64,000 nucleotides of DNA from an uncultured Bacillota bacterium (GTDB lineage: Bacteria; Sysuimicrobiota; Sysuimicrobiia; Sysuimicrobiales; Segetimicrobiaceae), in NCBI GenBank assembly GCA_963804645.1, contig CAWDRG010000009.1:288001-352000 (forward strand), written 5' to 3'. The notes beneath the pieces were generated by a model. The model was not told the origin of the DNA. It saw only the letters and a program-made list of their open reading frames with translations, and did not search any database. The position numbers were made by a program, and so were the translations under genes. This document shows, in pieces, positions 24,232 to 63,158 of this stretch (positions within the stretch are counted from its first letter, which is position 1; every line of letters starts with the position of its first letter).

Positions 24232-24507
24232 TCAGGCGGCCGGCCGGCGCCCGCGGCGCTCCGTCTCGACCCGATCCCGACCCGCGGACGCCCCGCGAGC
24301 GGACGCCGCCGCCCGCCGTCGCGCCCGAGCGGATCGCCCCGCCAGCGCGCGCCCGATCCACCGGGCGATCCCGAACCTTCGCGGCCGTCGCGCCGCCCGG
24401 CGCTCAGCCGTGACTTCCTGGATGCGCGCCGCGCGGCGCGCATCTTCGTGCAGATCCCGCATACGCTCTTCTGCCAGCATCAGAAATGGATCAGAACTCC
24501 AGTACAT
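24232..24507 (-). CDS. Small basic hypothetical protein
   Basis: GAGGAGG RBS before ATG 24507; N-terminal helix LAEERMRDLHEDARRAARIQ. Confidence 0.6.
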   Translation of the reverse strand: MYWSSDPFLMLAEERMRDLHEDARRAARIQEVTAERRAARRPRRFGIARWIGRALAGRSARARRRAAASARGASAGRDRVETERRGRRPAA

Positions 24508-24546
24508 GACTCGATGCCTCCTCAAATTGATTGCGTGAACGGCGCG

Positions 24547-24984
24547 CTACGCGCACGGCTGCGCGGCCTCTCCGGAGACGGCCGCGAGCAGGCGCGTCCA
24601 CGACAGGAGCCCGACGAGGCGCTCCCCGTCCATCACGGGCAGCACCCGCGCGCCCGCCCGGCGCATCGCGATCGCCGCCGCGGCGAGCGGCGCATCCGGT
24701 GCCACCGCTTCCGCCGACGCCGTCGCGCGCGCCACCGTCAGCCGGTCCAGCACGTCGCGCATCTCGTACACGTCGAGCGTCGTCGCCTCCGACGGCGTGA
24801 AGCGAAGCAGCGAGGCCTCGTCCACGAGCCCGACGAATCGCCGCCCGTCGAGCACCGCGAGCGCCTGCGCGCGGTGCTCGCGCAGCAGACGCAGGGCCGT
24901 CCCGATGCCTGTCCGCGGCGTGATCACCGGCAGCGGCACCGCCATCCAATCACGCACGCGCTCGTCGACGAAGTTCACAGCCAT
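24547..24984 (-). CDS. CBS-pair protein (AcuB-like, no ACT domain)
   Basis: VRDWM, VLDGRRFVGLV, PSEATTLDVYEM and LPVMDGERLVGLLS motifs; GAGGTG RBS. Confidence 0.85.
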   Translation of the reverse strand: MAVNFVDERVRDWMAVPLPVITPRTGIGTALRLLREHRAQALAVLDGRRFVGLVDEASLLRFTPSEATTLDVYEMRDVLDRLTVARATASAEAVAPDAPLAAAAIAMRRAGARVLPVMDGERLVGLLSWTRLLAAVSGEAAQPCA

Positions 24985-25103
24985 CTCACTCACCTCACAC
25001 CGTCTTGTGGCGTCCGCCACAGCGTACCCCGCGAGCCGTCCTTCATCTATCCGCTTCCCGCAGGCAAACCGCCCCGGCACTTGCCTCTTGCCATCCCTGC
25101 ATC

Positions 25104-25178
25104 TAACCTGCTATAGTGTTCTTACTGGTGATACGGTACCACATGAATTATAACCTGTCAATAGCTTGATGGGGGTTA
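25104..25178. promoter_or_regulatory. Two 28-bp TAACC-N18-GGT(T/G)A inverted repeats in a divergent promoter region; candidate CGNR/ABATE operator
   Basis: TAACCTGCTATAGTGTTCTTACTGGTGA (25104-25131) and TAACCTGTCAATAGCTTGATGGGGGTTA (25151-25178) in an AT-rich patch. Confidence 0.6.
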
Positions 25179-25210
25179 AGAGTAAGATAACCCTGAGTGA
25201 GGCGGGTGCC

Positions 25211-25858
25211 GTGACCGAGACGTCTGAACGATCAGAGTACACGTTCGACTTGTCCGGCGGCCTCTTGTGTCTGGATTTCGTGAACACGGTCAGCGGGTCG
25301 CGCGCCCGCCCCACCGAGCGGCTTCACTCGCACCGGGACTTGCTGTCCTGGGCCCGTCAGGCGCGCGTCGTTGCGGAGGACGAGATCGGGCGGCTCGCGC
25401 GAGAGGCGCAGCGGCGGCCGGGCGACGCGGCCCGGGCGCTCGACGACGCGCTCGGCCTTCGCGAGGCCCTGTTCCGGATCCTCACCGCCCGGATCGAGCT
25501 CCGCGCCCCCGATCGGGCGGATCTGAACCTCTTGAACGCCTGGCTGTCCCGCGCACTCGCGCATCAGCGGATCGCCGAAACACCGGATGGGTTCGCGTGG
25601 ACGTGGGACGACCACGGCGGCGCACTCGAGCGGATCGTGTGGCCCGTCATCCGATCGGCCGCGGACCTGCTGACGTCGCCGGACCTGCGCCGCGTGCGCC
25701 GGTGCGCCGGACCGACCTGCGACTGGCTGTTCATGGACACGAGCCGGAACCATACGCGCCGGTGGTGCGACATGGACAGCTGCGGCAACCGCGCCAAGGC
25801 CCGGCGGTACTACGAGCGCCACCGGGCGCACGCGAACACACCCGAGTCGGCGGACTGA
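25211..25858 (+). CDS. ABATE / CGNR zinc-finger domain protein (putative transcription regulator)
   Basis: LCLDFVNTV and C-terminal CAGPTCDWLFMDTSRNHTRRWCDMDSCGNRAKARRY. Confidence 0.93.
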   Translation: MTETSERSEYTFDLSGGLLCLDFVNTVSGSRARPTERLHSHRDLLSWARQARVVAEDEIGRLAREAQRRPGDAARALDDALGLREALFRILTARIELRAPDRADLNLLNAWLSRALAHQRIAETPDGFAWTWDDHGGALERIVWPVIRSAADLLTSPDLRRVRRCAGPTCDWLFMDTSRNHTRRWCDMDSCGNRAKARRYYERHRAHANTPESAD

Positions 25859-25876
25859 CCGCGCGCGCCGGCCGGA

Positions 25877-27298
25877 CGTGTCAAGTCATTAAAGAACCTT
25901 ACCGGAGAGGGTATCGTCAGGTCATTTAAGTTCTTACCGCGGAACCGGCGGTGGCGCGACGATCCTGTCGCTTGGCAAACAACCAGTCGTTGTTCCAGTG
26001 GTGCGCGCGCGGCTGGAACCGCGCGTCGACCGGGCTGGCCTCTGGGGTGCTGGCGCGGGGACTGTGACGCCGGTTGGCCAGCTGATAGATGCGCTCGAGC
26101 TTGCGATCGATGGCGGCCCCCAAGGCGAAGGGATCGATCTTGGCCCGCAGGCGCGCTAAGGTCCGGAGTTGTCGCGGATCGCCCTGTTTGGAGGCGAGGA
26201 GCCGATCCACGGGCGTTTGCGCGCGATCGTAGGTCCGGTGGACCTTGGCGCCGACCCGCGTCTTGCCGACCAGCTTGACCGACGGCTGAAAGAGGTTCAT
26301 CATCAGGCGCAGTTCGTGGCGGTAGAGGTCGTTGATCGCCGTGAGCGCCTCGGCGGAGTCGTAGCGGTCCCAGCCCAACAGCTTGCGCACGTGGGTCCAG
26401 TTTTTCTGCTCCACGTGGGCGTTGTCGTTTTTCTTGTAGGGCCGGCTGCGGGTGAACTCGATCTTCGACCCTCGGCAATACTCCCACACCACGGTGTTGA
26501 TGAACTCCGAGCCATTGTCGGAATCGAGGCCGCGGAGCGCAAAGGGCAGCGCCGCCCGCAGCTCCGCGAGCGCCCGCTGCACGCCGCGCTGCGTCTTGCT
26601 CAGGAGGGCCCGAGACTCCACCCACCCCGTCTGGATGTCCGTCAGGTTGAGCGATTGGAGGAAGTCCCCCACGGCCGAGTTGCCGGAATGGGAGACCAAG
26701 TCGACTTCCACGAAGCCGGGGGCCGTGACGTCCCAGTGCTCGGTGCGGACGGGGATATGGCTCTTGAGCAACGTGCCAGGCTTGGTGCGGCCGTAGAGCC
26801 GACGGCGGATCTGGCGCTTCCGACTGCGCAGGCGCCGGTCGATCGTACTGGGACTCATCTTGGGGAGCGCACGCAGCACCGCCCGCGGGATGGTGAAATG
26901 ACGGCGGGCCCAGGGCAACCAGAGCGGCAGCAGCGCCTGGAGCCGTGCGGACCAGGGGTATCCCGCGGCCTCCCAAATCGCCGCGAGCACGGTGACCGTC
27001 TGCTCGGCATAGACGGGCTGCCGACGGCGTGGGGGGGCCGGTGTGGGCAACGGGCCGTTTAGCACCGTGATCGCGTATTTGCGATGGTACCCGGTCGTGG
27101 CACAGAATTCGTCCAGGATCGCGCGCCGGTGTTTGCGCGGCGCAAGCGTGTAGCGTGGGCGAACGGCGCGGACGTATTCGCGACGAGCGGCAGGGGTCAC
27201 CGGGGCCTCCGGGGCGATAGACTGGGACGGCGCGCCCGGTAAGATCCTTCGTGATTTGACGATGCGGCTCATAGTAAGATTTTAGGTGAGTTGATTCG
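25877..27298 (-). mobile_element. Apparently intact 1,422-bp insertion sequence (ISNCY-like, integrase-core DDE)
   Basis: CCGGA direct repeat at 25872-25876 and 27299-27303. Imperfect inverted ends (CGTGTCAAGTCA vs reverse complement CGAATCAACTCA). Two ~25-bp GTAAG...TGA..TGA boxes at each end (25879-25904, 25915-25939, 27237-27261, 27272-27296). Confidence 0.88.
25926..27200 (-). CDS. DDE transposase (integrase core)
   Basis: ILDEFCATTGYHRKYAI, STIDRRL, TKPGTLLKSHIP; catalytic triad in EVDLVSH, DSDNGSEF and NAHVEQKN. GTG 27200 preferred because ATG 27272 lies inside the terminal boxes. Confidence 0.92.
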   Translation of the reverse strand: MTPAARREYVRAVRPRYTLAPRKHRRAILDEFCATTGYHRKYAITVLNGPLPTPAPPRRRQPVYAEQTVTVLAAIWEAAGYPWSARLQALLPLWLPWARRHFTIPRAVLRALPKMSPSTIDRRLRSRKRQIRRRLYGRTKPGTLLKSHIPVRTEHWDVTAPGFVEVDLVSHSGNSAVGDFLQSLNLTDIQTGWVESRALLSKTQRGVQRALAELRAALPFALRGLDSDNGSEFINTVVWEYCRGSKIEFTRSRPYKKNDNAHVEQKNWTHVRKLLGWDRYDSAEALTAINDLYRHELRLMMNLFQPSVKLVGKTRVGAKVHRTYDRAQTPVDRLLASKQGDPRQLRTLARLRAKIDPFALGAAIDRKLERIYQLANRRHSPRASTPEASPVDARFQPRAHHWNNDWLFAKRQDRRATAGSAVRT

Positions 27299-40590: not shown

Positions 40591-40984
40591 CACCAAACCG
40601 GCGGGCCCTCCCCAGCGTCACACGGCGGCGGCGGACATCGTTCCCCTCCGTCAGACACGCGACGAGGTCGAGATAATCGCCGGGCACGACCGCCGCGGCC
40701 GAGTACGCCGGCAACTCGCAGGCGGCCGCAGCACCGGGCGCCCAGGCGGCCCGCCAGGGACGCAGGGCCCGCGCGACCGCGATGACCCTCCCGTCCCGCC
40801 CGCAGAACACCACGTCGATCGGCGCCCGCATCCCGGCCGTGTGCACCGCGGCGCAGGGGGTGAGCCACAGCGCGTCGCCATCGGCAGGCGGGCGGCCGAT
40901 CCACCCCCGGCACCGGCGTCCCCACGTCGCCGCCACGTCACAGCGGACCGCCAGCACGAGGCCGGACTCGCGATGCCGCAGCAT
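40523..40984 (-). CDS. DUF192 domain protein, last gene of the tad operon
   Basis: RCRGWIGR, LTPCAAVHTAGMRAPIDVVF, LRPWR and ELPA motifs; its tail overlaps the AI-2E 3' end. Confidence 0.8.
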   Translation of the reverse strand: MLRHRESGLVLAVRCDVAATWGRRCRGWIGRPPADGDALWLTPCAAVHTAGMRAPIDVVFCGRDGRVIAVARALRPWRAAWAPGAAAACELPAYSAAAVVPGDYLDLVACLTEGNDVRRRRVTLGRARRFGVRLAARPGPGATRPRTADRRTR

Positions 40985-41883
40985 CACCGGAGGAGCCCGC
41001 CGGGTCCGAGCAGCTTCAGCGCCACCGGCCCCAACCCGATGATGAACACCTGCGGGAACACGCACACGACGAGCGGCAGCACGAGTTTCACCGCGAGCGC
41101 CCGCGCCGCTTCCTCCGCGCGCCGCAGCGCCATCCGCCTGAGGTGCGAGGCCTGCGCCTGGAGCGCGTCGGCGAGCGGCGCCCCGAGCCGGGCACTCTGG
41201 CCGAGCGTCGACGCCACGACCGAGAGCGCCTCGACGGGATAGCGCCGCAGGAGCTCGGCCATCCCCTCCTCGATCGTTCGCCCGAAGGCGAGGTCCGCGA
41301 GATAGCCGCGGAACGCCTGCCCGGCGACGCCGGGCGCCGTTCCGGCGTACTCGGCCACCGCGGCCGGGAGGCTGAGGCCGGCCCGGAGACCGACGACGAT
41401 CCCATCGAGCGCATCGGGAAGATCCCGCTCGAACTGCCGCCGCCGCGACGCGCCCCTGCGCTCCATCCATCCGCGGGGCTGGAGCCACCCGATCGCCAGC
41501 GCGCATGCGCTCCACCCGAGCGGCGGGCCCGGCAGCCCGAGCAGCCTGACCAACGTCCACGCCGCCAGCGCGGCGGCCACACCGGTCGCCAGCGCGAGCG
41601 CCTCGAACGTCTCGGGCTCCCACTCAAGCGCGGCGCGCGCCAAGCGGTCGGCCGTGCGCCGCCGCCGGCCCTCGGAACTCGCCCGGCGCAGCCACGCGGC
41701 GGTCCTGCCGCCGGTGAGCCTGGCGAACCGGCCGATCGGCGTCGGGCGCCGGCGCTCGTGCGATGCGTCCGCGGCCGCGAAGCGCCGGAGGCGGCGCAGC
41801 GCCGCGTCCGGCACGCGCGGCGGCCGAGCCGCCGCCAGCGCGAGGGCGCCGAGCACGGCGAGGAGCCACACGTCCCACCACAT
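40984..41883 (-). CDS. tadC: Tad pilus inner-membrane platform protein (T2SS F domain)
   Basis: LPDALD..VVGLRAGLS, RLGAPLADAL and AEEAA..LAVKLVLPLVVCVFP motifs. Confidence 0.88.
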   Translation of the reverse strand: MWWDVWLLAVLGALALAAARPPRVPDAALRRLRRFAAADASHERRRPTPIGRFARLTGGRTAAWLRRASSEGRRRRTADRLARAALEWEPETFEALALATGVAAALAAWTLVRLLGLPGPPLGWSACALAIGWLQPRGWMERRGASRRRQFERDLPDALDGIVVGLRAGLSLPAAVAEYAGTAPGVAGQAFRGYLADLAFGRTIEEGMAELLRRYPVEALSVVASTLGQSARLGAPLADALQAQASHLRRMALRRAEEAARALAVKLVLPLVVCVFPQVFIIGLGPVALKLLGPGGLLR

Positions 41884-42806
41884 CACGGAGTCACGCTCCT
41901 GATCATCGTGCGGATCATGTACCAGCCGAGCAGCTGCAGTCCCGCGGCGGTCCCGAGCAGCAGCCGCCCGGCGTCGGACTCGACCAGCGCGCGCATCGCG
42001 GCCGGATCGAGCCCGAGCATCGCGAGGCCCACCCCCACGGGCAGGAGGGTGAGAAATGCCGCGGTCGCCCGGGCGTGCGCGGTCACGGCACGGACCTCCT
42101 GCAGAAACGCGATCTGCTCCCGCACGGCCTGGGACTGCCGCGCCAGGCACTCCGCGAGATCCCCGCCGGTCCGCTCGGCGACCAGCACCGCGGTGACCGC
42201 CGCGGCGAGCGGACGGCTCGGCACCCGCCGCCGCAGGCCCTCGAGCGCCTGGCGGAGGGGCACGCCGAGCGCCATCTCCTCCACCGTCCGCGCGCACTCC
42301 GCGCGCAGCGGATCGGCAAGCCGCCGCGCGACCTCGGCGATGGCTTCGGACGCCGAACGATGCCCACGCAGCTCGCCCACCAGCAGATCGAGCGCCTCGG
42401 GCAGCTGCCCGTCGATGCGGCGGCCGCGCCGATCGCGCGAGATCCCGAGCCCGATCCACGCGAGGCCCGGCACCACCGCGCCCGCGGCCGCGCCGGCGAG
42501 CGGACCGCCCAAGACGGCCGCGACGACGGCGGCTAGGACGATGCCGCCGCACGCGGCGACCAGCGCCTCCGCAATCGAGAGCGCCACCCCGGCATGCCGG
42601 AGGGACTGCTCGACCGACGCCATCGCCCGCATCCGCACGAGGTGTCGGTCCAGGCGCCGCAGCCCCGAACGCCGCCGGCGCGGCGGGACCGCGCGGCAGG
42701 CGACGTGGCGCGCGAGCCGGCGCGACAGCGGATCGAAGGATCGCGCGGGCGCGCGGAGATCCAAGAGCAACAGGGCGACCGCCGCAACGGCCGCGAGCGC
42801 CGTCAC
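41883..42806 (-). CDS. tadB: Tad pilus inner-membrane platform protein (T2SS F domain)
   Basis: QLPEALDLL, ERTGGDLAE and EVRAVTAHAR motifs; GTGA overlap with tadA. Confidence 0.88.
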   Translation of the reverse strand: MTALAAVAAVALLLLDLRAPARSFDPLSRRLARHVACRAVPPRRRRSGLRRLDRHLVRMRAMASVEQSLRHAGVALSIAEALVAACGGIVLAAVVAAVLGGPLAGAAAGAVVPGLAWIGLGISRDRRGRRIDGQLPEALDLLVGELRGHRSASEAIAEVARRLADPLRAECARTVEEMALGVPLRQALEGLRRRVPSRPLAAAVTAVLVAERTGGDLAECLARQSQAVREQIAFLQEVRAVTAHARATAAFLTLLPVGVGLAMLGLDPAAMRALVESDAGRLLLGTAAGLQLLGWYMIRTMIRSVTP

Positions 42807-44068
42807 CGGACGCGCACCTCGGCGGGAGCGGGCAGCACCGGGGAGGGGACGCCGGCGCGCCGCAGCTTCTCCCACAGGCGCGGCGGGATGCCGGTCCACG
42901 CGAACGCGTTGTCCCGGCGTCCGAACCGGAAAATCGTCTGCGTCTGCACGGCGTCTCCGCCGAGACCCGTGACCTCGGTGATCTCCGAGGCCACGCGCCG
43001 GCCGTCGGGGAGCCGCTCGAGGTGCACGATCACCTCGATCGCCGCGGCGATGAGCCGCCGCACGACATCGCCCGGCAGCCCGGAGCCCCACCGCGCGAGC
43101 ACCTCCAGCCGGTCCAGGGCCTGTGCCGGACCGCTCGCGTGCAGCGTGCTCATGCTGCCGCTGTGCCCGGTGCTCATCGCCTGCAGCATGTCGAGCGCCT
43201 CCCCGCCGCGCACCTCGCCCACGATGATCCGATCGGGGTTCTGGCGGAGCGCGTTGCGCAGGAGGTGCGTCTGCGTGATCTCGCCCTTCCCCTCGACGTT
43301 CGGGGGCCGGGTCTCCCACCGCACGCAGTTCGTGACGGGGAGGCGCAGCTCGGCCGCCTCTTCGATCGTCAGGACGCGCTCGCCCGGGGGAATGGCGCCG
43401 GCGCACGCGTTCAGCAGGCTGGTCTTCCCGGCGCCGGTGCCGCCCGTGAAAATCACGTTGGCCCGGTGGCGGACCGCGGCCACAAGATAGGCGGCGATCG
43501 ATGCGCTCAGCGTCCCGCCAGCGATGAGCATCTCCACGGTGATCGGCGAGGCCGGGAACAGCCGGATCGCGAGACACGGGCCGCCGACCGCGACCGGGGG
43601 CAGCGCGGCGTGCGCGCGAAACCCCTGCGGCATCCGCGCGTCGACCATCGGGTTGGCGGCGTCGATGCGGCGTCCGGCGAGCTCCGCGATGCGCCCGATG
43701 ATGTACCGTAGGTGCGCTTCATCTCGAAACCGCACCGGGCTCTCGGTCTTGATACCGTGGCGCTGCACGTATACGAGGTCGTAGCGGTTCACCATGATGT
43801 CCGTGACGCCGGGATCGCGGAGCAGCGCCTCCAGCGGGCCGAATCCGACGATGTCGTCGCACAGCTCCCGCACGATGCGCTGGGTCTCCGCCTGCCCGAG
43901 GAACGGATAGTCGCGGAGGTACCCGGCGAGCGTGTCCTCCAGGTAGCTCCGCACGAGGCCGCGCTCCTGCCCGGCCAGCGCGTGCTTCTCGACCTCCGCC
44001 AGCAGCCGCTCGTGCAGGGCGGCGCGGATCTCCTCGGCGCGGCCGCGCCGCTCGACCGGGCTAGCCAT
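42803..44068 (-). CDS. cpaF: CpaF/TadA pilus assembly ATPase
   Basis: GFGPLE.LLRDP..TDIMVN, GGTGAGKT, TIEEAAEL, PDRIIVGEVRG and TGHSGSMSTLHA motifs. Confidence 0.95.
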   Translation of the reverse strand: MASPVERRGRAEEIRAALHERLLAEVEKHALAGQERGLVRSYLEDTLAGYLRDYPFLGQAETQRIVRELCDDIVGFGPLEALLRDPGVTDIMVNRYDLVYVQRHGIKTESPVRFRDEAHLRYIIGRIAELAGRRIDAANPMVDARMPQGFRAHAALPPVAVGGPCLAIRLFPASPITVEMLIAGGTLSASIAAYLVAAVRHRANVIFTGGTGAGKTSLLNACAGAIPPGERVLTIEEAAELRLPVTNCVRWETRPPNVEGKGEITQTHLLRNALRQNPDRIIVGEVRGGEALDMLQAMSTGHSGSMSTLHASGPAQALDRLEVLARWGSGLPGDVVRRLIAAAIEVIVHLERLPDGRRVASEITEVTGLGGDAVQTQTIFRFGRRDNAFAWTGIPPRLWEKLRRAGVPSPVLPAPAEVRVR

Positions 44069-45212
44069 CGTCCCGCGCGCCGGCATCGCCGAGCGCGCTA
44101 CGGACCGCGTCGCGCCGACGCGCCACAATCGTCTGTGCCAGGCGGCGCACCGACGCGGACCACGGGTCCTCGGGATCCGCCGCGACGGCGAGCTCCCCGC
44201 GATCCGCGCGGCCGCGAAGCGCCGCCGCGTGCGGCAGCACCGCGGCAAACGGCCGGCCGATCGCCGCGGCCGCCTGCTCGACGGTGTACGAGGCCTCCCG
44301 ATCGGTCCGGTTCAGCACCAGCGTCGGCGGCGGCCCTCCGGCGCCGTCCGCGAGCGTGTCGATGAGCGCGCGGAGGCTTCGAAGCGCCGCGAGTTCCAGC
44401 GTCGTGACGCCGAGGACAAGCGAGGCCCGACGCACCAGCAGGCGCTGGGCGGCCAGCACCGGCCGCCCCACATCGACGACCACGAACGCCGCGATCGCGG
44501 TGCACGCGTCAACGACCGCCGCGATCATGCCCTCGACCTCGGACGGATCGTCGGGAAGCGCCCACAACGAGAGGACCGTGAACCCCGCGGGATGCGGGGC
44601 GGCGGACTGGCGCAGCACGCGGGGATCGATCGGCAGCCGCTGACGCAGGACGTCCGCGACCGTCCCTCCGATCTCGAGGTCTCCGGCGACGGCGAGCGTG
44701 CCGAACGGCGGGGCGTCGGCATCGACGACCAAGGCTCCGCCCTGCGAGGCGAGGGCCGCGCCGAGGTTGAGGGCCAGCGCCGTGCATCCGGCGCCGCCCT
44801 TTCCCGAGGTGACCGCCACCGACATCCCGCGCAGTCGATCGGGGACCGCCGCGGCCTCGGCGAGCGCCTCGCGTACCGACGCCGCGCACGCGGGCGCGTC
44901 GATCGGCACCCGCAGGACGTCGCACACGCCCGCCCGGACGAGCTCGCGCACCGCGTCGAACGGCAGGTCGCCGGCGAGCACGAACAGCTTCGTGTGCGGA
45001 TAGGCCGCGGCCGCCTGCGCTAGCGCGGCGCGGGCGCGCCGATCCTCCGGCAGATCCACGAGCACGCACGCGGCCGCGCTCAGCGCGAGCAGCTCCACCG
45101 CGTGAGGGAACGACTCCGCGTGCTCGACGCGGCCGAACTCGCCGAGTGCGCGCGCGAGCGCGTCCCGCCCGGCGGGATCGCGATGATACAGGACGATCGA
45201 CGGCCCCGTCAC
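44061..45212 (-). CDS. cpaE: CpaE/TadZ protein (atypical receiver plus MinD-like domain)
   Basis: Receiver-like N-terminus; deviant Walker A SGKGGAGCT; VVVDVG; LVLNR; operon context. Confidence 0.85.
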   Translation of the reverse strand: MTGPSIVLYHRDPAGRDALARALGEFGRVEHAESFPHAVELLALSAAACVLVDLPEDRRARAALAQAAAAYPHTKLFVLAGDLPFDAVRELVRAGVCDVLRVPIDAPACAASVREALAEAAAVPDRLRGMSVAVTSGKGGAGCTALALNLGAALASQGGALVVDADAPPFGTLAVAGDLEIGGTVADVLRQRLPIDPRVLRQSAAPHPAGFTVLSLWALPDDPSEVEGMIAAVVDACTAIAAFVVVDVGRPVLAAQRLLVRRASLVLGVTTLELAALRSLRALIDTLADGAGGPPPTLVLNRTDREASYTVEQAAAAIGRPFAAVLPHAAALRGRADRGELAVAADPEDPWSASVRRLAQTIVARRRDAVRSALGDAGARDDG

Positions 45213-45224
45213 GCCGCCCTCCGG

Positions 45225-46151
45225 TCAGAAGCCATCGCCGCCGTCACCGCCGCCCGACCCGTCCCCACCGCCGTCCGAGCCGTTCCCGGAGCCGTCGCCG
45301 GCGGAGTCACCCGACGACGAATCCCCGGACGCGTCACCCGCCGACATGTCCGAGGATCCACCGGTCGCATCGGAAGACACGTCGGCCGATCCGCCGGACG
45401 CGGCCGTCGTGTCCGCTTCCGGCGAGGACTGCATCGCGCCGAAGCCCATCGCGGCCGTCAGATCCCCGGCAAACGGACCGGGGTTGGTGGGCGTCGCGCC
45501 CATGCTTTCGAGCGCCGCCGCCGCCGAGGCAGGATCGCCTGCCGCGATCGAATCGCAGTTGCAGGGCCCGACGGACTCGACCGTCTCCCCGCTGGCGGGG
45601 TCGGGCGCGTCGCCCGTCGAGTCCGGCGACGCGCCGAGATCGGCGGGCCCGTTGTCGCCGCCCGCGGTCCCGCCGGACGTGTGCGACGCGATCACCGGCG
45701 CGGTCCACCAGGGCGCATCGGCCTGTGCGACAACGGTCCAAAGCGGAATTCCGAAGACACCCAAGAAAAACGTCGGGACGCGCGCTTCGGCGGAGAGCGC
45801 CAGCCCCGCCCCGGACGGCGTCGCGGTGACGGTGGACGCGGCAAGACCGACCGACGCCAGTTCATCGTGCGCGACGACCAGCGCCTCGGAGACGGCGGCC
45901 TGCAGCACCGCGGGCGCGGAGGCGCCGGACCCGTCGGCGACCGCCGTGCTCCAGCGCTCGGCCGACAGCGCCCCGTCGTCGACCGCGTGCTGCAGCATCG
46001 AGCGAACGGTGTACGCGTTGCCCACGTCCACCGCGGCGCCGGCGAACCCGAGCACCACGGGCAGCAGCAGCGCCGTGAGGAGGACGACTCCCCCGCGCTC
46101 TCCCGCGGGCCGCCGGTGCATCCAAACCCGATCACGCCGCCATGCGCTCAT
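45225..46151 (-). CDS. TadG-like pseudopilin with an Asp/Ser/Gly-rich C-terminal tail
   Basis: ERGGVVLL..., AVDVGNAY...LQHAVDDGALS, VPTFFLGVFG; start may be ATG 46121. Confidence 0.75.
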   Translation of the reverse strand: MSAWRRDRVWMHRRPAGERGGVVLLTALLLPVVLGFAGAAVDVGNAYTVRSMLQHAVDDGALSAERWSTAVADGSGASAPAVLQAAVSEALVVAHDELASVGLAASTVTATPSGAGLALSAEARVPTFFLGVFGIPLWTVVAQADAPWWTAPVIASHTSGGTAGGDNGPADLGASPDSTGDAPDPASGETVESVGPCNCDSIAAGDPASAAAALESMGATPTNPGPFAGDLTAAMGFGAMQSSPEADTTAASGGSADVSSDATGGSSDMSAGDASGDSSSGDSAGDGSGNGSDGGGDGSGGGDGGDGF

Positions 46152-47170
46152 CGCGTGCCTCCCAAAGGCGCGTCGACCCGGCGCGGGGCGGCCGCCCCGT
46201 TCGGCCCGGGCACGATCGCGCCGAATCGATGGTCGCCTTCAATCACATCGACGGTCCACGCGGCGGGCGGCGCTGCCGGCGCGCGTACGCCCGAGATCTG
46301 CAGCGCACGCGGCGGCGGTGACACCGCGGCCGCGCGGACCGCGCCCGGCCGGGGACCCGAAGACGCGCGAGGCACCGCCGGCGGCGCCTCGGGCATCAGA
46401 CGCAGGTAGGAACCCAGCGCCACCGGCCCGCCGTCCTGCGCCGATGGCGGTTCCGCGCCGAGCGGGTGCGCGGTGATGAAGATGCGCCCAAACGCCTCGG
46501 CCAGCACGATCTCCCGTTCGCGATCGCTTGGGATCGCGATCTCGATCTGCGCGGGCGCGCCACCACCCGAGCCCGTCGGGGCCGAAAGGACGACCCGCGA
46601 CGGGGCGGACGCGGCGGTGACCCGCAGCACCACGCCCGTGGCCAGCAGCGTCGCGACGCCCTGTCCGCGGGCCGGCTCGAACGCTCCGATCAGATCGACG
46701 CGGCTGCGGGGCGCGAGCTCGCCGGCAAACGTCGCCGCGGAGGGGACCACGAGGCTGACCGCGCGCATCCCGGACGGCACGCGGGCGGCGATCCCGTAGT
46801 ATCGAACCGCGGGGACGAGATCCTCCGGGGCGACCGGCTCGCCGGGTTCGAACGAGCGCAGCGCCACCTGTCCCACCGCGCCGGCGAGCCGCGCCGGCGG
46901 AACGGCGCGCTCGCCGGCGCCCGACCTCCACACCACCTGCAGGTCGGCCGGCGCCAGCACGCGTCCGGAGCGCACGGGCCGCCGCGCGATCAGGACGGGG
47001 GTGGCCGCGGAGCGCGCGGCGTGGCCGCGGCGGGCGTGGGAAATCGCCGACCAGCACGCGAGCGCGAGGAGCGCGATCGCGGCCCACCGCAGCCAGCGCC
47101 GGCGGCGCGCGAGAATGCGGACCGCCAGCGGCCCAAGACGAATCACCCGGTCGTCACTGTTGGGAGCCAT
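46148..47170 (-). CDS. cpaB: CpaB/RcpC Flp pilus assembly protein (SAF domain)
   Basis: N-terminal TM segment, VLIARRPVRSG.VL...DL, VPSGMRAVSL and LAPRSRVDLI. Confidence 0.85.
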   Translation of the reverse strand: MAPNSDDRVIRLGPLAVRILARRRRWLRWAAIALLALACWSAISHARRGHAARSAATPVLIARRPVRSGRVLAPADLQVVWRSGAGERAVPPARLAGAVGQVALRSFEPGEPVAPEDLVPAVRYYGIAARVPSGMRAVSLVVPSAATFAGELAPRSRVDLIGAFEPARGQGVATLLATGVVLRVTAASAPSRVVLSAPTGSGGGAPAQIEIAIPSDREREIVLAEAFGRIFITAHPLGAEPPSAQDGGPVALGSYLRLMPEAPPAVPRASSGPRPGAVRAAAVSPPPRALQISGVRAPAAPPAAWTVDVIEGDHRFGAIVPGPNGAAAPRRVDAPLGGTR

Positions 47171-58356: not shown

Positions 58357-59136
58357 CTACGCACGCCGGCCCGCAGTCATCCCGCCGTCAATGACAAACG
58401 GCGCCCCGGTCACAAACGCGGCATCGTCCGACGCAAGGTACAGCGCCGCCGCCGCGATCTCCTCGGGGCGGCCCAGGCGGCCGGCGAGTTGCCGCTCCTT
58501 GATCCGCTCGAGCGCCGCGTCCGGATCCGCGTACGATGTCTTGAGGTACCGCTCGACAAACGGCGTGTACACCGTGCCCGGGCACAGCGCGTTCACGCGG
58601 ATCTGCTGCGGCACATAGTCCACCGCCATCGCGCGCGTCAGCGCGAGCACGGCGCCCTTCGTGGCGGAGTACGCCGCGCGCCGTTCCAGGCCGAACAGCG
58701 CGGCGCCCGAGGACATGTTGATGATGCATCCACCGCCCCGCGCGAGCATGTGCGGCAGCACGTACTTCGCCATGAGGAACACTCCGCGCAGGTTCACGGC
58801 GACGACGCGGTCCCACTCGTCCTCCGGGACCTCGTGGAGCATCCCGACGTGGCTCACGCCGGCGTTGTTGAAGAGGATATCGATGCGCCCGTGCCACGCG
58901 GCGACGGCATCGGCGGCGCGCCGCGCGTCGCGGGACACGGACACGTCGGCGTGGACCCAGAGGGCGTCCCCGCCCCCTTGCACGATCTCGCGAACGGTCT
59001 CTCGCGCCCCGGCCTCGTCCACGTCAACCACACCGACCGAGGCGCCCTCACGGGCGAACAGCGCGGCCGTCGCCCGTCCGATGCCGGAGCCCGCCCCGGT
59101 AATCAACGCCACCCGTCCAGCCAGCCGCGTCATCAC
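58357..59136 (-). CDS. SDR family oxidoreductase
   Basis: TGAGSGIG, NNAG, YSATK, IRVNALCPG and IDGG motifs. Confidence 0.92.
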   Translation of the reverse strand: MMTRLAGRVALITGAGSGIGRATAALFAREGASVGVVDVDEAGARETVREIVQGGGDALWVHADVSVSRDARRAADAVAAWHGRIDILFNNAGVSHVGMLHEVPEDEWDRVVAVNLRGVFLMAKYVLPHMLARGGGCIINMSSGAALFGLERRAAYSATKGAVLALTRAMAVDYVPQQIRVNALCPGTVYTPFVERYLKTSYADPDAALERIKERQLAGRLGRPEEIAAAALYLASDDAAFVTGAPFVIDGGMTAGRRA

Positions 59137-59362
59137 GCCTCCTTAGATTCTCTGGCCGCCCGACCCCTCGGCGCGCAAATGGTGCCGTGGGGTGGGGATC
59201 GTCGGAAGTTCTGCCACGGATAGCCGCTGGCCTGCGTCTCCACGCTCCACCCCCCCGCTTCCGGAGAATTGCTCCGCAATTGGCATCGAAAATTCACGTC
59301 CGGAAGAGAAAAACGTCGCCCGAATGACTACAAATGCAAAATTGGATGATTTGGGTGCTATC

Positions 59363-59411
59363 AGTACATACGTTCGTATTTATCGGTTTTGATATACCGT
59401 ACATAAGTTCG
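59363..59411. promoter_or_regulatory. Two putative LexA (SOS) boxes, GTAC-N4-GTTC
   Basis: aGTACatacGTTCg (core 59364-59375) and cGTACataaGTTCg (core 59399-59410), 35 bp apart, upstream of lexA; variant of the Cheo box GAAC-N4-GTTC. Confidence 0.8.
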
Positions 59412-59465
59412 ATATCATAGGGTTGGGAAACAAAACAGCAAGAGATGCGATTCGGGAGGTCAGGG

Positions 59466-60101
59466 ATGGCAAAGGCTCGCGCCCTCACTCGCAGACAGCG
59501 GCAGATCCTGGACTACCTGTGCAAGGAAGTTCAGGGCAAGGGCTTCGCGCCGTCTGTCCGAGAGATCGGAGAAGCGCTCGGGATGAGGTCTCCATCGACG
59601 GTGCATCAGCATCTCGTCGCGCTCGAGCAGAAGGGCTGCGTGAGACGGCACGGAGAGCGGATGCGCGCCCTGGAGGTCGTGGACAAGGCGCTGATCCAAT
59701 CGGGCGACAGCGTCTCCCTCCCCCTGGTCGGCCGTGTGTCCGCCGGCACGCCGATCCTGGCCGAGGAACACATCGAGGAACACATCGAGGTGCCGCGCCG
59801 TTTCTTAGGGGACGTCCGCGGGTGCTTTCTGCTTCGAGTGCGCGGCGACAGCATGGTCGGAGCCGGCATCATGCCGAACGACGTAGTGGTCGTCAGGCGA
59901 CAGGCCGTCGCCTCTCCCGGGGAGATCATCGTGGCGCTCCTGGAAGACGAGGCGACCGTCAAGACGCTCGCGCTCAACGAAGGCACTCCGGTGCTCATGC
60001 CGGCCAACCCAGCGTACCAGCCGATTCGAAAGGAGTTCCAGATCGTCGGTCGGGTCGTCGGGCTCATCCGGGCCTATCAGGGAGGACTGACATGGTCGTA
60101 A
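59466..60101 (+). CDS. lexA: SOS repressor LexA
   Basis: LTRRQRQIL, PSVREIG, SPSTVHQHL, VSAG cleavage site, RGDSM (Ser) and EATVK (Lys). Confidence 0.96.
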   Translation: MAKARALTRRQRQILDYLCKEVQGKGFAPSVREIGEALGMRSPSTVHQHLVALEQKGCVRRHGERMRALEVVDKALIQSGDSVSLPLVGRVSAGTPILAEEHIEEHIEVPRRFLGDVRGCFLLRVRGDSMVGAGIMPNDVVVVRRQAVASPGEIIVALLEDEATVKTLALNEGTPVLMPANPAYQPIRKEFQIVGRVVGLIRAYQGGLTWS

Positions 60102-60367
60102 GCACAGCACACTGGACACGTTCGACAGCGGTCCGGCAGGTGGGTACGCCACGCCGTCGGAGACCGGTTCGGCGCCACCTCGCGGTCGTGCGACCCGTCC
60201 ACGCCGCCTCCAGCAGTGCCGCGTGGGTGCCGGCGCAGCCCTCCGGCGAGATGACGGTCGCGCGGTTCCTGCGGCTGTTCGCGGACGACCAAAAGCTCAC
60301 GCGATTCAAGCTCTTGATGCTGGCCGCGCTGGTCATCGCGGCCGCGGTGCTCGATCGGGCGGTGTAG
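60092..60367 (+). CDS. Small (91 aa) basic protein with C-terminal hydrophobic helix, overlapping the lexA stop
   Basis: GGAGG at 60081-60085, ATG 60092; ends FKLLMLAALVIAAAVLDRAV. Confidence 0.65.
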   Translation: MVVSTAHWTRSTAVRQVGTPRRRRPVRRHLAVVRPVHAASSSAAWVPAQPSGEMTVARFLRLFADDQKLTRFKLLMLAALVIAAAVLDRAV

Positions 60368-60369
60368 CC

Positions 60370-60861
60370 ATGGCGAACGGGACGTCGAGATCCTCCAAGA
60401 CTCTGCACGCGTACGTCGCGGCCGCGCCGCTGTCCAGCGGGCGGGCCGGGATGGGAGTCGTGTTCGTGGACGCCCAGGGGCGCGTCCTGCGGCGGATCGG
60501 CCGCACGCTTGCGGGGGTCGAGAACCAGGATCTTGCGGCGTTTCGAGGGATTCTCTACGCGCTGTGGAACTCGCGCCGCCTCGGCCCGCGGTCGGTCGTC
60601 GTGCACAGCGACGCCCCGGACGTCGTGGAGCAGATCAACGGGACCCGGGAGGTCGACACGGCGCTGATCGGGCCGTATCTCGAAGTGCGGGCGCTGCTCC
60701 ACGCATACCGTGGGGCGCGCGTCAAAGCCGACCGGGCCGCGTGGGGGCACGAGGCCGCCGCGGTGGCCGAGGCGGCCCGCGATCACGACACCGACGATAC
60801 GATCGAAGATCTGCCGCTGTGGGCCGGACGCACGACCACGCTGGAGCGCTCGAGCGCGTGA
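60370..60861 (+). CDS. RNase HI-fold (RVT_3-like) protein lacking most catalytic acidic residues
   Basis: AGMGVVFVD, VVVHSDAPDVVEQING and PYLEVRALL match the RNase HI pattern. The YxDG, NNxAE and RAD positions read YVAA, QDLAA and EAA. Confidence 0.75.
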   Translation: MANGTSRSSKTLHAYVAAAPLSSGRAGMGVVFVDAQGRVLRRIGRTLAGVENQDLAAFRGILYALWNSRRLGPRSVVVHSDAPDVVEQINGTREVDTALIGPYLEVRALLHAYRGARVKADRAAWGHEAAAVAEAARDHDTDDTIEDLPLWAGRTTTLERSSA

Positions 60862-60972
60862 CCGCCGCAGGTCCGGGAATCCGAAGGAACCACCCCTCCC
60901 CGCTGCGAACCACCTAGCCATCACGCGGCGCCGGGCCGCGTTCAGGCCCGCGCGCCCTTGTCATCGGAGAAG

Positions 60973-61518
60973 ATGAGCAAGCCACCGAGCGCGTCTCCAT
61001 TGCTTGACGAGGGTGAGGAACGGCTGGCGGCGGAAGACTGGGACGGGGCGGTCGCCGCGTTCCAGAAGGCGTGTACGGCCGCGCCGTCGTCCGCATTGGC
61101 CCACAGCAAGCTCGGCGTCGCCTACGTGCACGGCCAACGGTGGGACGACGCCCACGCGGCCTTTACCAAGGCCGTCCAGCTGGATCCCCGGTACGCCCCG
61201 GCGCACAGCAACCTCGGCAACGTCTACCGTGAGCGCGGGCGCTTCGACGAGGCGATCGCGTGCTACCAGAAGGCGATCGCGATGGACCCCGACTACTGGA
61301 TCGCGCACCAAAACCTGGGGGTCGTGTACAAGCAGCAGGGGCGGATCGGCGAAGCCGTGCGGGAGTTCAAGACCGCCACGCGTCTCTCGCTCCGCGCGGG
61401 GGCCCGGAGCCCGTCGACCGCCGCGACAGGGGGCCGCGCGGGCCGTATGGGCTGCATGGGCGCCGGGGGCATGTCGGTCCTCCTGCTGGTCGCGCTGGCT
61501 ACGCTCGTCCTGCATTGA
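60973..61518 (+). CDS. TPR protein with C-terminal membrane anchor
   Basis: Repeats AHSKLGVAY, AHSNLGNVY and AHQNLGVVY; hydrophobic C-terminus. Confidence 0.88.
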   Translation: MSKPPSASPLLDEGEERLAAEDWDGAVAAFQKACTAAPSSALAHSKLGVAYVHGQRWDDAHAAFTKAVQLDPRYAPAHSNLGNVYRERGRFDEAIACYQKAIAMDPDYWIAHQNLGVVYKQQGRIGEAVREFKTATRLSLRAGARSPSTAATGGRAGRMGCMGAGGMSVLLLVALATLVLH

Positions 61519-61602: not shown

Positions 61603-61932
61603 ATGGGAGCCAAGCCGGAGAGCGTGACGGAGAAGACGTTCGACGCCGACGTGCTGAAGTCGGGCACGCCGGTCCTGGTTGACTTCTGGGCGACGTGGTG
61701 CGGGCCGTGCAAGATGATCGCACCAATCGTCGAGGAGCTGGCAGGTGAGTACGAGGGGAAGCTGCGCGTGATGAAGCTCGACGTGGACGAGAACGGCGGG
61801 GTGGCCGCCAAGTACAGCATCATGAGCATTCCGACCCTCGGCGTCTTCCGCGGGGGCGAGCTCGTGGAGCGGATCGTCGGCTTCATGCCGAAGGAAGCGC
61901 TGAAGAAGCGCATCGACGCGGCGCTGACGTAA
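61603..61932 (+). CDS. trxA: Thioredoxin
   Basis: VDFWATWCGPCK and SIPTL motifs. Confidence 0.97.
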   Translation: MGAKPESVTEKTFDADVLKSGTPVLVDFWATWCGPCKMIAPIVEELAGEYEGKLRVMKLDVDENGGVAAKYSIMSIPTLGVFRGGELVERIVGFMPKEALKKRIDAALT

Positions 61933-62322: not shown

Positions 62323-62703
62323 GTGAAGGAACGCACACCGGACACGCCGGTCTACGTGATCAGCATTGCCGCGGATCTTACCGGATGCCACCCGCGAACG
62401 CTCCGGATCTACGAGGAGCGCGGCCTGGTGGCCCCCACCCGCCGTCACCGAATCCGTCTGTACTCGGAACTGGATATTCAGCGCGTGAGACTGATCCGGT
62501 TCCTCACGGAGGAGCGAGGATTGAACCTCGCCGGCGTTCGCCTGCTGCTCGAGATCCAGGAACACTACCATGAGGAGTTGACCTGGGTCTACGACGGCGG
62601 GCAGCCCGACAGGGAGACGCGGAGACCGGCACACGAGCCACAGGCAACGAGCACGTCAGCACGCGAGAAGAACCATAGACCACAAGGAGGACGAGGACGA
62701 TGA
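62323..62703 (+). CDS. hspR: MerR-family heat-shock repressor
   Basis: PVYVISIAADLTGCHPRTLRIYEERGLVAP, RLYS and GLNLAGV motifs; first gene of the dnaK operon. Confidence 0.88.
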   Translation: MKERTPDTPVYVISIAADLTGCHPRTLRIYEERGLVAPTRRHRIRLYSELDIQRVRLIRFLTEERGLNLAGVRLLLEIQEHYHEELTWVYDGGQPDRETRRPAHEPQATSTSAREKNHRPQGGRGR

Positions 62704-63158
62704 GTAGCATCATGGTTTGGGATCCGTTCAATGAGGTCATGACCCTGCGGCGCTCGATGGAGCGCCTGATCGAAGATGTCGTCACGCCGGGGCCCGCAGC
62801 CACGGCGCGCGACGGCAACGGACTCGCCGTGTGGGCACCCGCGGTCGAGATGTACGAGACCGACAGCGAGGTGATCGTGCGGGCAGAGCTGCCCAACATC
62901 GACCCCGCGCAGGTCGACATCACCGTCGCGCACGACGCGGTCACCCTGAAGGGTGAGACCAAGCGCGAGACCGAGCAGAAGGGCCGGAACTACTACCGGC
63001 GCGAGCTTCGGTACGGCACGTTCACGCGGACGCTGCCGCTGGCCACCGAGGTGAACAACGCGGACGCGCAGGCGACCTATAAGGACGGGGTGCTGGAGAT
63101 CAAGATTCCGAAGTCGGAGCGGATGAAGCCGACGTCGGTGAAGGTGCAAGCCAGCTAA
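62700..63158 (+). CDS. Hsp20/alpha-crystallin small heat-shock protein
   Basis: WDPF, WAPAVEMYET, YGTFTRTLPL and ATYKDGVLEIKIPK motifs. Confidence 0.94.
   Translation: MSSIMVWDPFNEVMTLRRSMERLIEDVVTPGPAATARDGNGLAVWAPAVEMYETDSEVIVRAELPNIDPAQVDITVAHDAVTLKGETKRETEQKGRNYYRRELRYGTFTRTLPLATEVNNADAQATYKDGVLEIKIPKSERMKPTSVKVQAS

Follow-up and report, generated by a model that had tools for sequence, protein, structure and literature searches.

A compact three-gene cassette lies on the forward strand toward the end of a 64,000-nucleotide (nt) stretch of DNA (the window; positions 288,001 to 352,000 of contig CAWDRG010000009.1, GenBank assembly GCA_963804645.1, here genome G000) from an uncultured bacterium of the phylum Sysuimicrobiota. 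The cassette is headed by a lexA gene, here lexA2, and is preceded by two LexA boxes of 14 bp: the distal operator, box 1 (AGTACATACGTTCG, 59363-59376), and box 2 (CGTACATAAGTTCG, 59398-59411). Box 2 falls within the spacer of a promoter-like site (59389-59418) composed of TTGATA (59389-59394), an 18-nt spacer and TATCAT (59413-59418). This was the single sigma-70-like site detected by a simple consensus-pattern scan of 59100-61100, where 0.3 would be expected. The lexA2 gene (59466-60101) encodes 211 amino acids (aa) and ends in a TAA stop at 60099-60101. Its start is most likely the ATG at 59466, which has GGGAGG 6 nt before it, rather than an alternative start at 59445. A Shine-Dalgarno sequence (GGGAGGA, 60080-86) and the ATG (60092) of the next open reading frame (ORF) are embedded in the last lexA2 codons (60080-60094). 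This small ORF (60092-60367, TAG stop at 60365-60367) overlaps lexA2 by 10 nt and encodes a 91-aa protein that is predicted to be anchored in the membrane by its tail. The third gene (60370-60861) starts with an ATG 2 nt past the small-ORF stop and encodes a 163-aa protein of the RVT_3 family, for which we predict a catalytically degenerate type-1 RNase H fold. The two boxes, the ribosome-binding site and start of the 91-aa ORF inside the lexA 3′ end, and the 2-nt spacing of the 163-aa ORF are all located as a preliminary description of this DNA had reported. Inside the cassette, the consensus scan found no promoter-like site and the box scan no LexA box, consistent with downstream ORFs that have no promoters of their own, and a pattern scan of 59100-61100 found no terminator-like site. 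An opposite-strand ORF of 286 aa (60064-60924) and longer in-frame alternatives of 212 aa and 314 aa were rejected as high-GC artefacts, with no family match or the same match only.

The gene order is conserved among relatives. The 163-aa protein was matched in 39 of 41 related genomes, and lexA is found upstream on the same strand in 28 of the 30 best loci, the window's own included. Thus, the expectation that both downstream ORFs would stay next to lexA in related genomes was borne out. The two exceptions are L023, a paralog match in a 65%-complete genome, and L025, which belongs to genome G028; L024, whose lexA is cut by a contig end, is counted among the 28. The order lexA2, small ORF, RNase H-like gene recurs in another four genomes, which belong to families f4 and f5. 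At the level of the phylum, a profile of the RNase H-like family matched, at E ≤ 1e-8, 83 of 94 genomes that are labeled as one order; the tally takes in G062, and several of the f5 matches carry one in-frame stop. For this phylum, also known as CSP1-3, the available text of one paper lists Fervidifonticultor among the metagenome-assembled genomes (PMC11604079), and that of another states that LexA and RecA were gained in the NP-7 family (PMC11962464).

The junctions between the genes are conserved as well. The small-ORF start and the lexA stop share 4 or 10 nt in most loci and 7 nt in one, and the Shine-Dalgarno sequence and start codon of the small ORF lie inside lexA2 in all loci examined. 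The RNase H-like gene begins at, or a few nt from, the small-ORF stop in most loci, and every lexA2-linked locus examined pairs the small protein with an RNase H-fold protein. Metatranscriptome contigs that are 98-100% identical to the window cover parts of lexA (59596-59844), the small ORF (60171-60321) and the RNase H-like gene (60525-60698), while others bridge the junctions between lexA and the small ORF (59783-60158) and between the small ORF and the RNase H-like gene (60307-60457). These are short contigs from four runs of one study, in which strand, ends and level are unreadable and DNA carry-over is possible; 59200-59595 and 60699-61000 have no contig cover and are uninformative. The proposed tight coupling in one transcript is thus supported by start/stop overlaps kept across loci and, weakly, by the bridging contigs.

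The three encoded proteins

The assignment of the first gene as lexA is secure. Its product matches TIGR00498 (2e-60; 203.9 bits against a cut-off of 110.95) and contains both the winged helix-turn-helix domain PF01726 (1e-22) and the S24 peptidase domain PF00717 (8e-30). By motif position, LexA2 keeps A93-G94 (VSAGTP), S129 (GDSM) and K166 (TVK), which we take to be the LexA self-cleavage site and the Ser/Lys dyad. The gene is the second of two lexA paralogs in G000. The more canonical paralog, LexA1 (G000:C13:56385-56984), scores 259 bits to TIGR00498. Its gene has a CGAACATCTGTTTG box about 86 nt upstream, and a reading frame labeled transposase-like by eye, without a family scan, lies just upstream of it. 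Among the 41 relatives (G034 included), 38 have a LexA1-type match and 37 a LexA2-type match. The recognition helix reads SSSTVHSHL in LexA1 (14/14 of the proteins parsed by motif, out of 21, with 7 left out) and SPSTVHQHL in LexA2 (26/27), and the wing reads DPSKPRA in LexA1 versus HGDRMRA in LexA2.

The 163-aa protein gave a PF13456 (RVT_3) match of 1.6e-9. We built an AlphaFold2 model from 20 of the 28 orthologs; it has a pLDDT of 85.8 and is confident over residues 11-140, with a disordered tail. The folded domain spans residues 11-138 and is followed by an acidic disordered tail. Foldseek returned Halobacterium RNase H1 (4e19) as the top match, characterized by an E-value of 1e-10, a TM-score of 0.89 and an RMSD of 1.7 Å; the other top matches include the N-domain of Rv2228c (3hst) and LC11-RNase H1 (4h8k). 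Of 394 PDB matches with E ≤ 0.001, those listed (35) all belong to RNase H or to retroviral reverse transcriptase-RNase H. From the model, we are confident in assigning a type-1 RNase H fold.

In RNase HI, D10, E48 and D70 are each essential. Residues 11-33 of the 163-aa protein, the expected place of the first catalytic Asp, contain no D or E, and the catalytic Glu in NNVAEY of Rv2228c aligns with A57 in NQDLAAF. The third catalytic position is D81 here and P, A, S, Q or E in the orthologs, and the fourth is E134 here and A, Q, S, Y, N, R or M in the orthologs (20 aligned). Loss or variation of the catalytic residues also extends to the best 120 of 225 database homologs; the homologs are named ‘reverse transcriptase-like’, ‘ribonuclease HI’ or hypothetical. 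Conserved instead are glycines, R25, R45, R59, R69, R70, R74, R107, R114, the helix GPYLEVRALLHAYR and P149-L150-W151, and the RNase H-like domain is net basic (+1 to +9). Judged by alignment, the protein is an RNase H fold without its active site, presumably a dead enzyme, so that the label of a degenerate RNase HI-fold protein given earlier stands on the family match, the fold and the lost or variable DEDD residues. Longer, fused forms of the family were absent at E ≤ 1e-10, which is weak evidence, and the ESM Atlas returned generic RVT_3 clusters only.

The small ORF was analyzed in 27 loci (the 30 best loci minus two without lexA and minus the cut L024). Its frame is open in 27/27 of these, from the start codon within lexA through to a conserved C-terminus, whereas the +1 frame contains stops in 27/27 and the +2 frame in 11/27. 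The GC fractions by codon position are 0.73/0.57/0.81, compared with 0.74/0.43/0.82 for lexA and 0.76/0.49/0.85 for the RNase H-like gene, and the entropies by codon position are 1.00/0.60/1.30 over 30 conserved codons. Of the differing codons, 2788 of 7938 are synonymous in the small-ORF frame, compared with 901 of 8064 in one shifted frame and 392 of 7692 in the other. The small ORF is therefore a real gene with a coding substitution pattern. Public gene callers do predict it, in 51 clusters that are all annotated as hypothetical, without a Pfam family. Family scans gave no Pfam or NCBIfam match and no LysM domain, and no usable match was found in the ESM Atlas.

The small protein varies from 46 to 118 aa across loci. 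Its conserved core (residues 58-91, 60263-60364), delimited by alignment and hydropathy, consists of a juxtamembrane motif and a predicted transmembrane helix. The motif is W.R[LF].DDR.L[VI]..K, followed by a hydrophobic stretch, a Glu and 3-7 further residues (3 after E88 here). D65, D66 and K73 are invariant and E88 is nearly so in an alignment of 20 small proteins (from 19 lexA-linked loci and one paralog). The maximum 19-residue hydropathy window (1.94-2.67) is C-terminal in 27/27 loci, and the N-terminal part is variable, Arg-rich and net basic, with 12 basic versus 3 acidic residues here. Since the hydropathy peak is C-terminal and the N-terminal part Arg-rich, we predict a single-pass tail-anchored membrane protein with a cytoplasmic N-terminus. 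Of the earlier designation as a small membrane protein, the single predicted membrane helix was recovered in all 27 loci, while the membrane location is a prediction from hydropathy only.

Operators, the SOS regulon and flanking genes

We compared the upstream regions of lexA1, recA, lexA2 and imuA in up to 30 related genomes (L001-L030, L067, L081-L147). At lexA2, boxes of the form G.AC-N4-GTTCG occur at matching positions, with 52 boxes in 26 loci, comprising 47 GTAC, 3 GCAC, 2 GGAC and 0 GAAC variants, and the layout with a box within the promoter recurs in the orthologous loci. A weight matrix built on the boxes of related lexA2 loci and applied at a threshold of at least 16 bits gave 12 matches in the 5.3-Mb genome versus 5 in the shuffled genome. 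The two lexA2 boxes rank second (box 2, 26.6 bits) and third (box 1, 21.2 bits) genome-wide, and no other such box in the window has an AT-rich spacer. This predicts that lexA2 is autoregulated through palindromic operators at its own promoter.

The best matrix match in the genome outside lexA2 is a perfect CGTACATATGTTCG, located 63 nt upstream of an imuA-like/imuB/dnaE2 cassette. This cassette lies on a different contig from lexA2 (G000:C18, ~40950-46607, minus strand; L078). Its imuA-like gene was assigned from a weak RecA match, imuB from an IMS match and dnaE2 from a match to the Pol III alpha subunit with an intein; the intein-splicing domain match (PF14890) covers residues 780-886 of DnaE2. 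The perfect box at the imuA cassette, related boxes inside the promoter regions of recA and lexA1, and the intact cleavage residues of LexA2 together indicate that the lexA2-type boxes are SOS operators, as far as sequence comparison can tell. In G000, the recA box lies between TTGACA and the -10 element. A Pfam scan of the ORFs near the lower-scoring boxes returned mostly no family, and the ORF picks there are probably in wrong frames.

Two operator variants are conserved among the relatives. CGAAC-N4-GTTTG is found at lexA1 (21/21 boxes) and recA (23/30 loci), and CGTAC-N4-GTTCG at lexA2 and many imuA genes. In the imuA loci of 18 relatives, 8 boxes are of the GTAC type, 7 are the perfect palindrome and 0 are of the GTTTG type. 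The variants are paralleled by the fixed differences between LexA1 and LexA2 in the recognition helix and wing. Two LexA paralogs with two operator types look like a split regulon, as in the LexA1/LexA2 pair of Pseudomonas putida. No box was found by the pattern used in 7 of the 30 recA loci or in 3 of the 18 imuA loci. Genomes G036 and G039 encode LexA1 only, yet carry a GTAC-type box at imuA, which speaks against drawing the division sharply and makes a LexA2-specific link uncertain. A strict rule by which LexA2 would use GTAC boxes and LexA1 GTTTG boxes is weakened by these two genomes, and we do not adopt it.

Downstream of the cassette lies a gene for a TPR protein with a hydrophobic C-terminal end (60973-61518, forward strand), assigned from TPR family matches with the start at 60973 picked by eye. 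The TPR gene follows the RNase H-like gene in 28/30 loci with variable gaps, and a thioredoxin gene is present in 23/30. The TPR gene is a conserved downstream neighbor that probably forms a separate unit outside the tight cassette. The TPR protein ends in the hydrophobic stretch SVLLLVALATLVLH and, on this account, may be tail-anchored too. In an f5 genome (L177; G026:C9:27800-33000), about 2.7 kb of other sequence separates the RNase H-like gene from the TPR gene. In the window, the TPR gene is followed by genes for thioredoxin (61603-61932), a MerR-family regulator (62323-62703), Hsp20 (62700-63158) and DnaK (63243 to the end). On the other side, a gene for a short-chain dehydrogenase (58357-59136, minus strand) diverges from lexA2 and shares its promoter region (59137-59465). 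Box 1 could also act on this gene, which adjoins lexA2 in just 3/30 loci.

Docking candidates and alternative readings

The disordered tail of the RNase H-like protein contains the short linear motif DLPLW (residues 147-151, 60808-60822). P149, L150 and W151 are invariant in 20/20 aligned orthologs, and DL[P/A/T]LW is present in 120/120 of the best database homologs (113 LPLW, 1 MPLW, 5 LALW and 1 LTLW), in which it lies 9-20 residues from the C-terminus. The linker before PLW has a net charge of -4 to -8 in 18/20 orthologs. Because the motif is kept strictly in an otherwise free tail, it is most likely a docking peptide for a hub protein. The beta sliding clamp is our tentative first choice of hub, at somewhat short of even odds, and the partners of the FtsZ tail are an unlikely second. 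In the available text of the respective papers, 352-QLPLWG-357 of ImuB is needed for clamp binding (PMC10421592), and the bacterial clamp-binding consensus is QL(S/D)LF, with variation tolerated (PMC9690074). The LPLW of the tail is identical to that of ImuB. Mimicry of the SSB tail was considered and rejected, as the DEDVPF of SSB is at the very end of the protein. In G000, a DinB-like (IMS) gene (C1, ~24300-26300, minus strand; L174, L176) is spread over two frames with 2 TGA codons in one match, which could mean that the gene is frameshifted or broken or that the assembly is wrong; QTLLF, a likely clamp-binding motif by sequence, lies in the C-terminal part of the DinB-like protein.

The small ORF and the RNase H-like gene also occur away from lexA2. 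A second such pair is located 33 kb upstream of the window (G000 C9:254669-255302; L066:3169-3800), with an ATGA overlap and a tail that reads QLSVL in place of DLPLW. The box scan found no LexA box at this pair. An OmpR-type response regulator and a PAS histidine kinase are encoded divergently from it, with PstS nearby. The same response regulator/histidine kinase neighborhood, without lexA, was found in 7/7 paralog loci examined. By pattern search, the small-ORF motif is present upstream of 3/7 paralog loci and of both second copies in genus g2. The paralogous pair beside a two-component system suggests that the small protein and the RNase H-like protein travel together under two stress regulators. 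The paralog tails of genus g1 are fully diverged except for QLS[VIA]L (4/4), a sequence that agrees with the clamp consensus but not with the FtsZ peptide and so favors the clamp; the two g2 second copies keep [ED]LPLW. Conversely, genome G028 (family f7) has LexA1 only and lacks both lexA2 and the small ORF. It encodes a stand-alone RNase H-like ortholog with a DDLPLW tail behind TTGACA-TA[CAAACAAATGTTCG]C-TATAAT. Because this copy has a LexA box of its own, the RNase H-like gene appears to be an SOS gene in its own right.

Taken together, we interpret the cassette as a self-repressed SOS-type tricistronic operon that is headed by LexA2 and encodes a non-enzymatic checkpoint or adaptor pair, a reading to which we assign a probability of about 0.55. 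In undamaged cells, a LexA dimer would occupy both operators, including the one within the promoter. After damage, RecA-stimulated self-cleavage of LexA2 would lead to one transcript, from which the downstream genes would be translated by coupling to lexA2, so that the amounts of the tail-anchored protein and the pseudo-RNase H would be tied to that of LexA2. The small protein would face the cytoplasm with its basic N-terminal part and its DDR..K juxtamembrane motif. The pseudo-RNase H would not hydrolyze RNA/DNA hybrids and would instead offer a conserved domain rich in Arg and a flexible, acidic tail with DLPLW. This tail would dock on a hub, for which the beta clamp is the likeliest candidate in view of the LPLW held in common with ImuB QLPLWG and the QLS[VIA]L of the paralogs, and the membrane partner may localize or restrain the pseudo-RNase H. 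As a result, replication or division would be paused or re-routed by a checkpoint or adaptor at the replisome or membrane, not by a nuclease.

Several points weigh against this interpretation. Damage induction of the cassette is something we infer from its operators, and the metatranscriptome contigs, from one study with no silent-region control, give a weak hint that transcription crosses both junctions. The hydrophobic run between K73 and E88 of the small protein is just ~14-15 residues long, with hydropathy as the sole basis for membrane insertion. Position 1 of the tail motif is D, not the usual Q of clamp-binding motifs, in 114/114 homologs with PLW, and the organism's own DinB (QTLLF) and ImuB (QLRFL) appear to have Q-initial motifs, as judged by eye. 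The FtsZ of G000 ends in EDLDIPAFLRKR, and its peptide EDLDIPAFL fits DLPLW about equally well. Three paralogs from genus g5 have no clear tail motif. Finally, the box pattern failed at some recA and imuA loci, and a tie to LexA2 in particular is uncertain in view of G036 and G039, as described above. A predicted complex between the RNase H-like protein and a fragment of the small protein (residues 50-91) scored 0.00 without controls and is evidence neither way.

The FtsZ match is also the basis of the alternative that survives best, an unlikely one in our estimate, in which the cassette encodes a cell-division inhibitor. Either the small protein would act like SidA/DidA, YneA, DivS or ChiZ, or the DLPLW tail would mimic the FtsZ C-terminal peptide and compete with FtsZ for membrane tethers, so that division stops during DNA repair. 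LexA-controlled small membrane proteins are the usual non-SulA checkpoint, and have in common only their size and anchor according to the available part of PMC6051672; a conserved, predicted tail-anchored protein encoded next to lexA would suit this description. In the FtsZ end and in the tail IEDLPLWAGR alike, acidic residues are followed by a match to D-[IL]-P-x-[FW], and the invariant D at position 1 suits FtsZ better than the clamp consensus. However, the small protein has no similarity to the named inhibitors in the Pfam, NCBIfam and LysM scans, and the g1 paralog tails misfit the FtsZ peptide. The SOS-boxed copy of G028 stands without a small ORF, implying that the small protein may be dispensable for some roles of its partner, and the second pair has no LexA box beside its two-component system and PstS, implying a module that is not tied to DNA damage alone. 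About as improbable is an elaborated form of our own checkpoint/adaptor reading, which would make the pair a DNA-damage checkpoint of a kind new to bacteria and in which the pseudo-RNase H would be held at the membrane by its partner, DLPLW would plug the clamp or the partners of the FtsZ tail and cause a pause by sequestration, and the module would be wired both to LexA2 and to a phosphate-type two-component system, with half-site discrimination (CGTAC versus CAAAC) by the two LexA proteins.

Two further alternatives are, in our view, improbable to a greater degree still. The duplication of the pair within genomes, and its make-up of two small, translationally coupled genes with ATGA overlaps, would also be expected of a toxin-antitoxin-like module, in which the RNase H-fold protein would inhibit growth by targeting the clamp, in the manner of SocB or RipA, and the small protein would neutralize it. 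From the text available, SocB binds the clamp via a clamp-binding motif (PMC9690074) and RipA acts on the sliding clamp (PMC12795458). Against this, the pair occupies a vertical, fixed chromosomal neighborhood throughout the phylum (lexA2, small ORF, RNase H-like gene, TPR, thioredoxin) and is not patchy or mobile, G028 keeps the putative toxin alone, and the small protein has no recognized DNA-binding or adaptor domain in a family scan that did not include a PADLOC or toxin-antitoxin family search. Alternatively, the RNase H-fold protein could still bind or cleave RNA/DNA hybrids or R-loops at damaged forks, with the tail merely recruiting it. Its high-confidence modeled RNase H1 fold, its net basic domain with many conserved arginines and the retention of D81 and E134 in the 163-aa protein itself would be compatible with this, whereas Ala stands in place of both the first Asp and the Glu of DEDD, and the other two positions vary among orthologs. 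Hybrid binding without cleavage is possible, and would be compatible with a non-enzymatic adaptor.

That the three genes are mere neighbors, with the downstream pair constitutive or under its own signals outside the SOS response, is very improbable: weak promoters in high-GC genomes do escape a simple consensus scan, and synteny alone is weak evidence because the TPR, thioredoxin, MerR, Hsp20 and DnaK order is conserved too, but the small-ORF start and Shine-Dalgarno sequence nested in lexA2, the closely spaced start of the third gene, the lack of any detected internal promoter-like site or box, the LexA box of the stand-alone ortholog and the RNA-library contigs across both junctions all argue otherwise.

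Relation to known systems and implications

The closest precedent for the layout is in Pseudomonas putida, where, according to the text available (PMC3901139), a second LexA paralog is encoded first in a multigene SOS operon, lexA2-imuA-imuB-dnaE2, that it also represses. In both organisms, a second LexA paralog stands at the head of a (here predicted) SOS operon, and two LexA proteins with different recognition helices are accompanied by two operator types. In G000, however, lexA2 is followed by genes for a small membrane protein (predicted) and an apparently dead RNase H rather than by imuA-imuB-dnaE2, and the mutasome cassette is on another contig under the same type of box as lexA2.

The small protein resembles YneA, SidA/DidA, DivS and ChiZ/Rv2719c in being small, in its predicted single pass through the membrane and in the place of its gene, next to lexA and downstream of LexA operators. 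This class of SOS checkpoint proteins is defined just by small size and membrane anchoring in the accessible portion of PMC6051672. Unlike its members, the small protein described here has no sequence relation to them, is predicted to be tail-anchored with a cytoplasmic DDR..K motif, is encoded in the same direction as lexA2 and translationally coupled to it rather than divergent, is partnered with an RNase H-fold protein, and has a paralogous pair outside the SOS context.

The RNase H-like protein shares the fold and PF13456 family of type-1 RNases H (4e19, 3hst and 4h8k; TM up to 0.89), but differs from them in the lost or variable DEDD residues, the family-specific GPYLEVRALLHAYR helix, the conserved arginines and the acidic tail with DLPLW. 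A parallel can be drawn to ImuB, a dead Y-family polymerase that serves as a hub: in each case a dead enzyme fold, under SOS control (inferred here), carries xLPLW in a flexible region. The folds are different, position 1 of the motif is D and not Q, and clamp docking is proposed here from the likeness of the motif. As in SocAB and RipAB, in the parts of those reports available, a two-gene module encodes a larger product that may dock on the sliding clamp; unlike them, the present module is chromosomal, vertically conserved and LexA-linked, has a predicted membrane partner and has no known toxicity.

The preliminary description did not recognize this partner set from known lexA cassettes. Full-text literature searches on LexA with RNase H or small membrane proteins, lexA2/imuA, SOS comparative genomics and clamp-binding toxins returned no description of such a cassette, and passages searched in the two CSP1-3 papers cited above (without their supplements) mention only the gain of LexA and RecA. 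Sequence comparison thus points to a LexA-headed SOS operon with a previously undescribed effector pair.

SOS effectors beyond a few model phyla are mostly unknown, and growth-stopping checkpoint proteins escape homology searches. Here, comparative evidence marks two uncharacterized families as core SOS members of a widespread, uncultured soil phylum. Peptides, purified proteins and heterologous expression would suffice to test the ideas raised by the cassette, without any need to culture the organism. The two LexA paralogs and two operator variants offer a clean natural system for studying how a repressor family splits its regulon. If the proposed role is correct, the enzyme folds reused as adaptors, such as that of ImuB among the polymerases, would gain a further member in an RNase H that is dead but carries a hub-docking motif.

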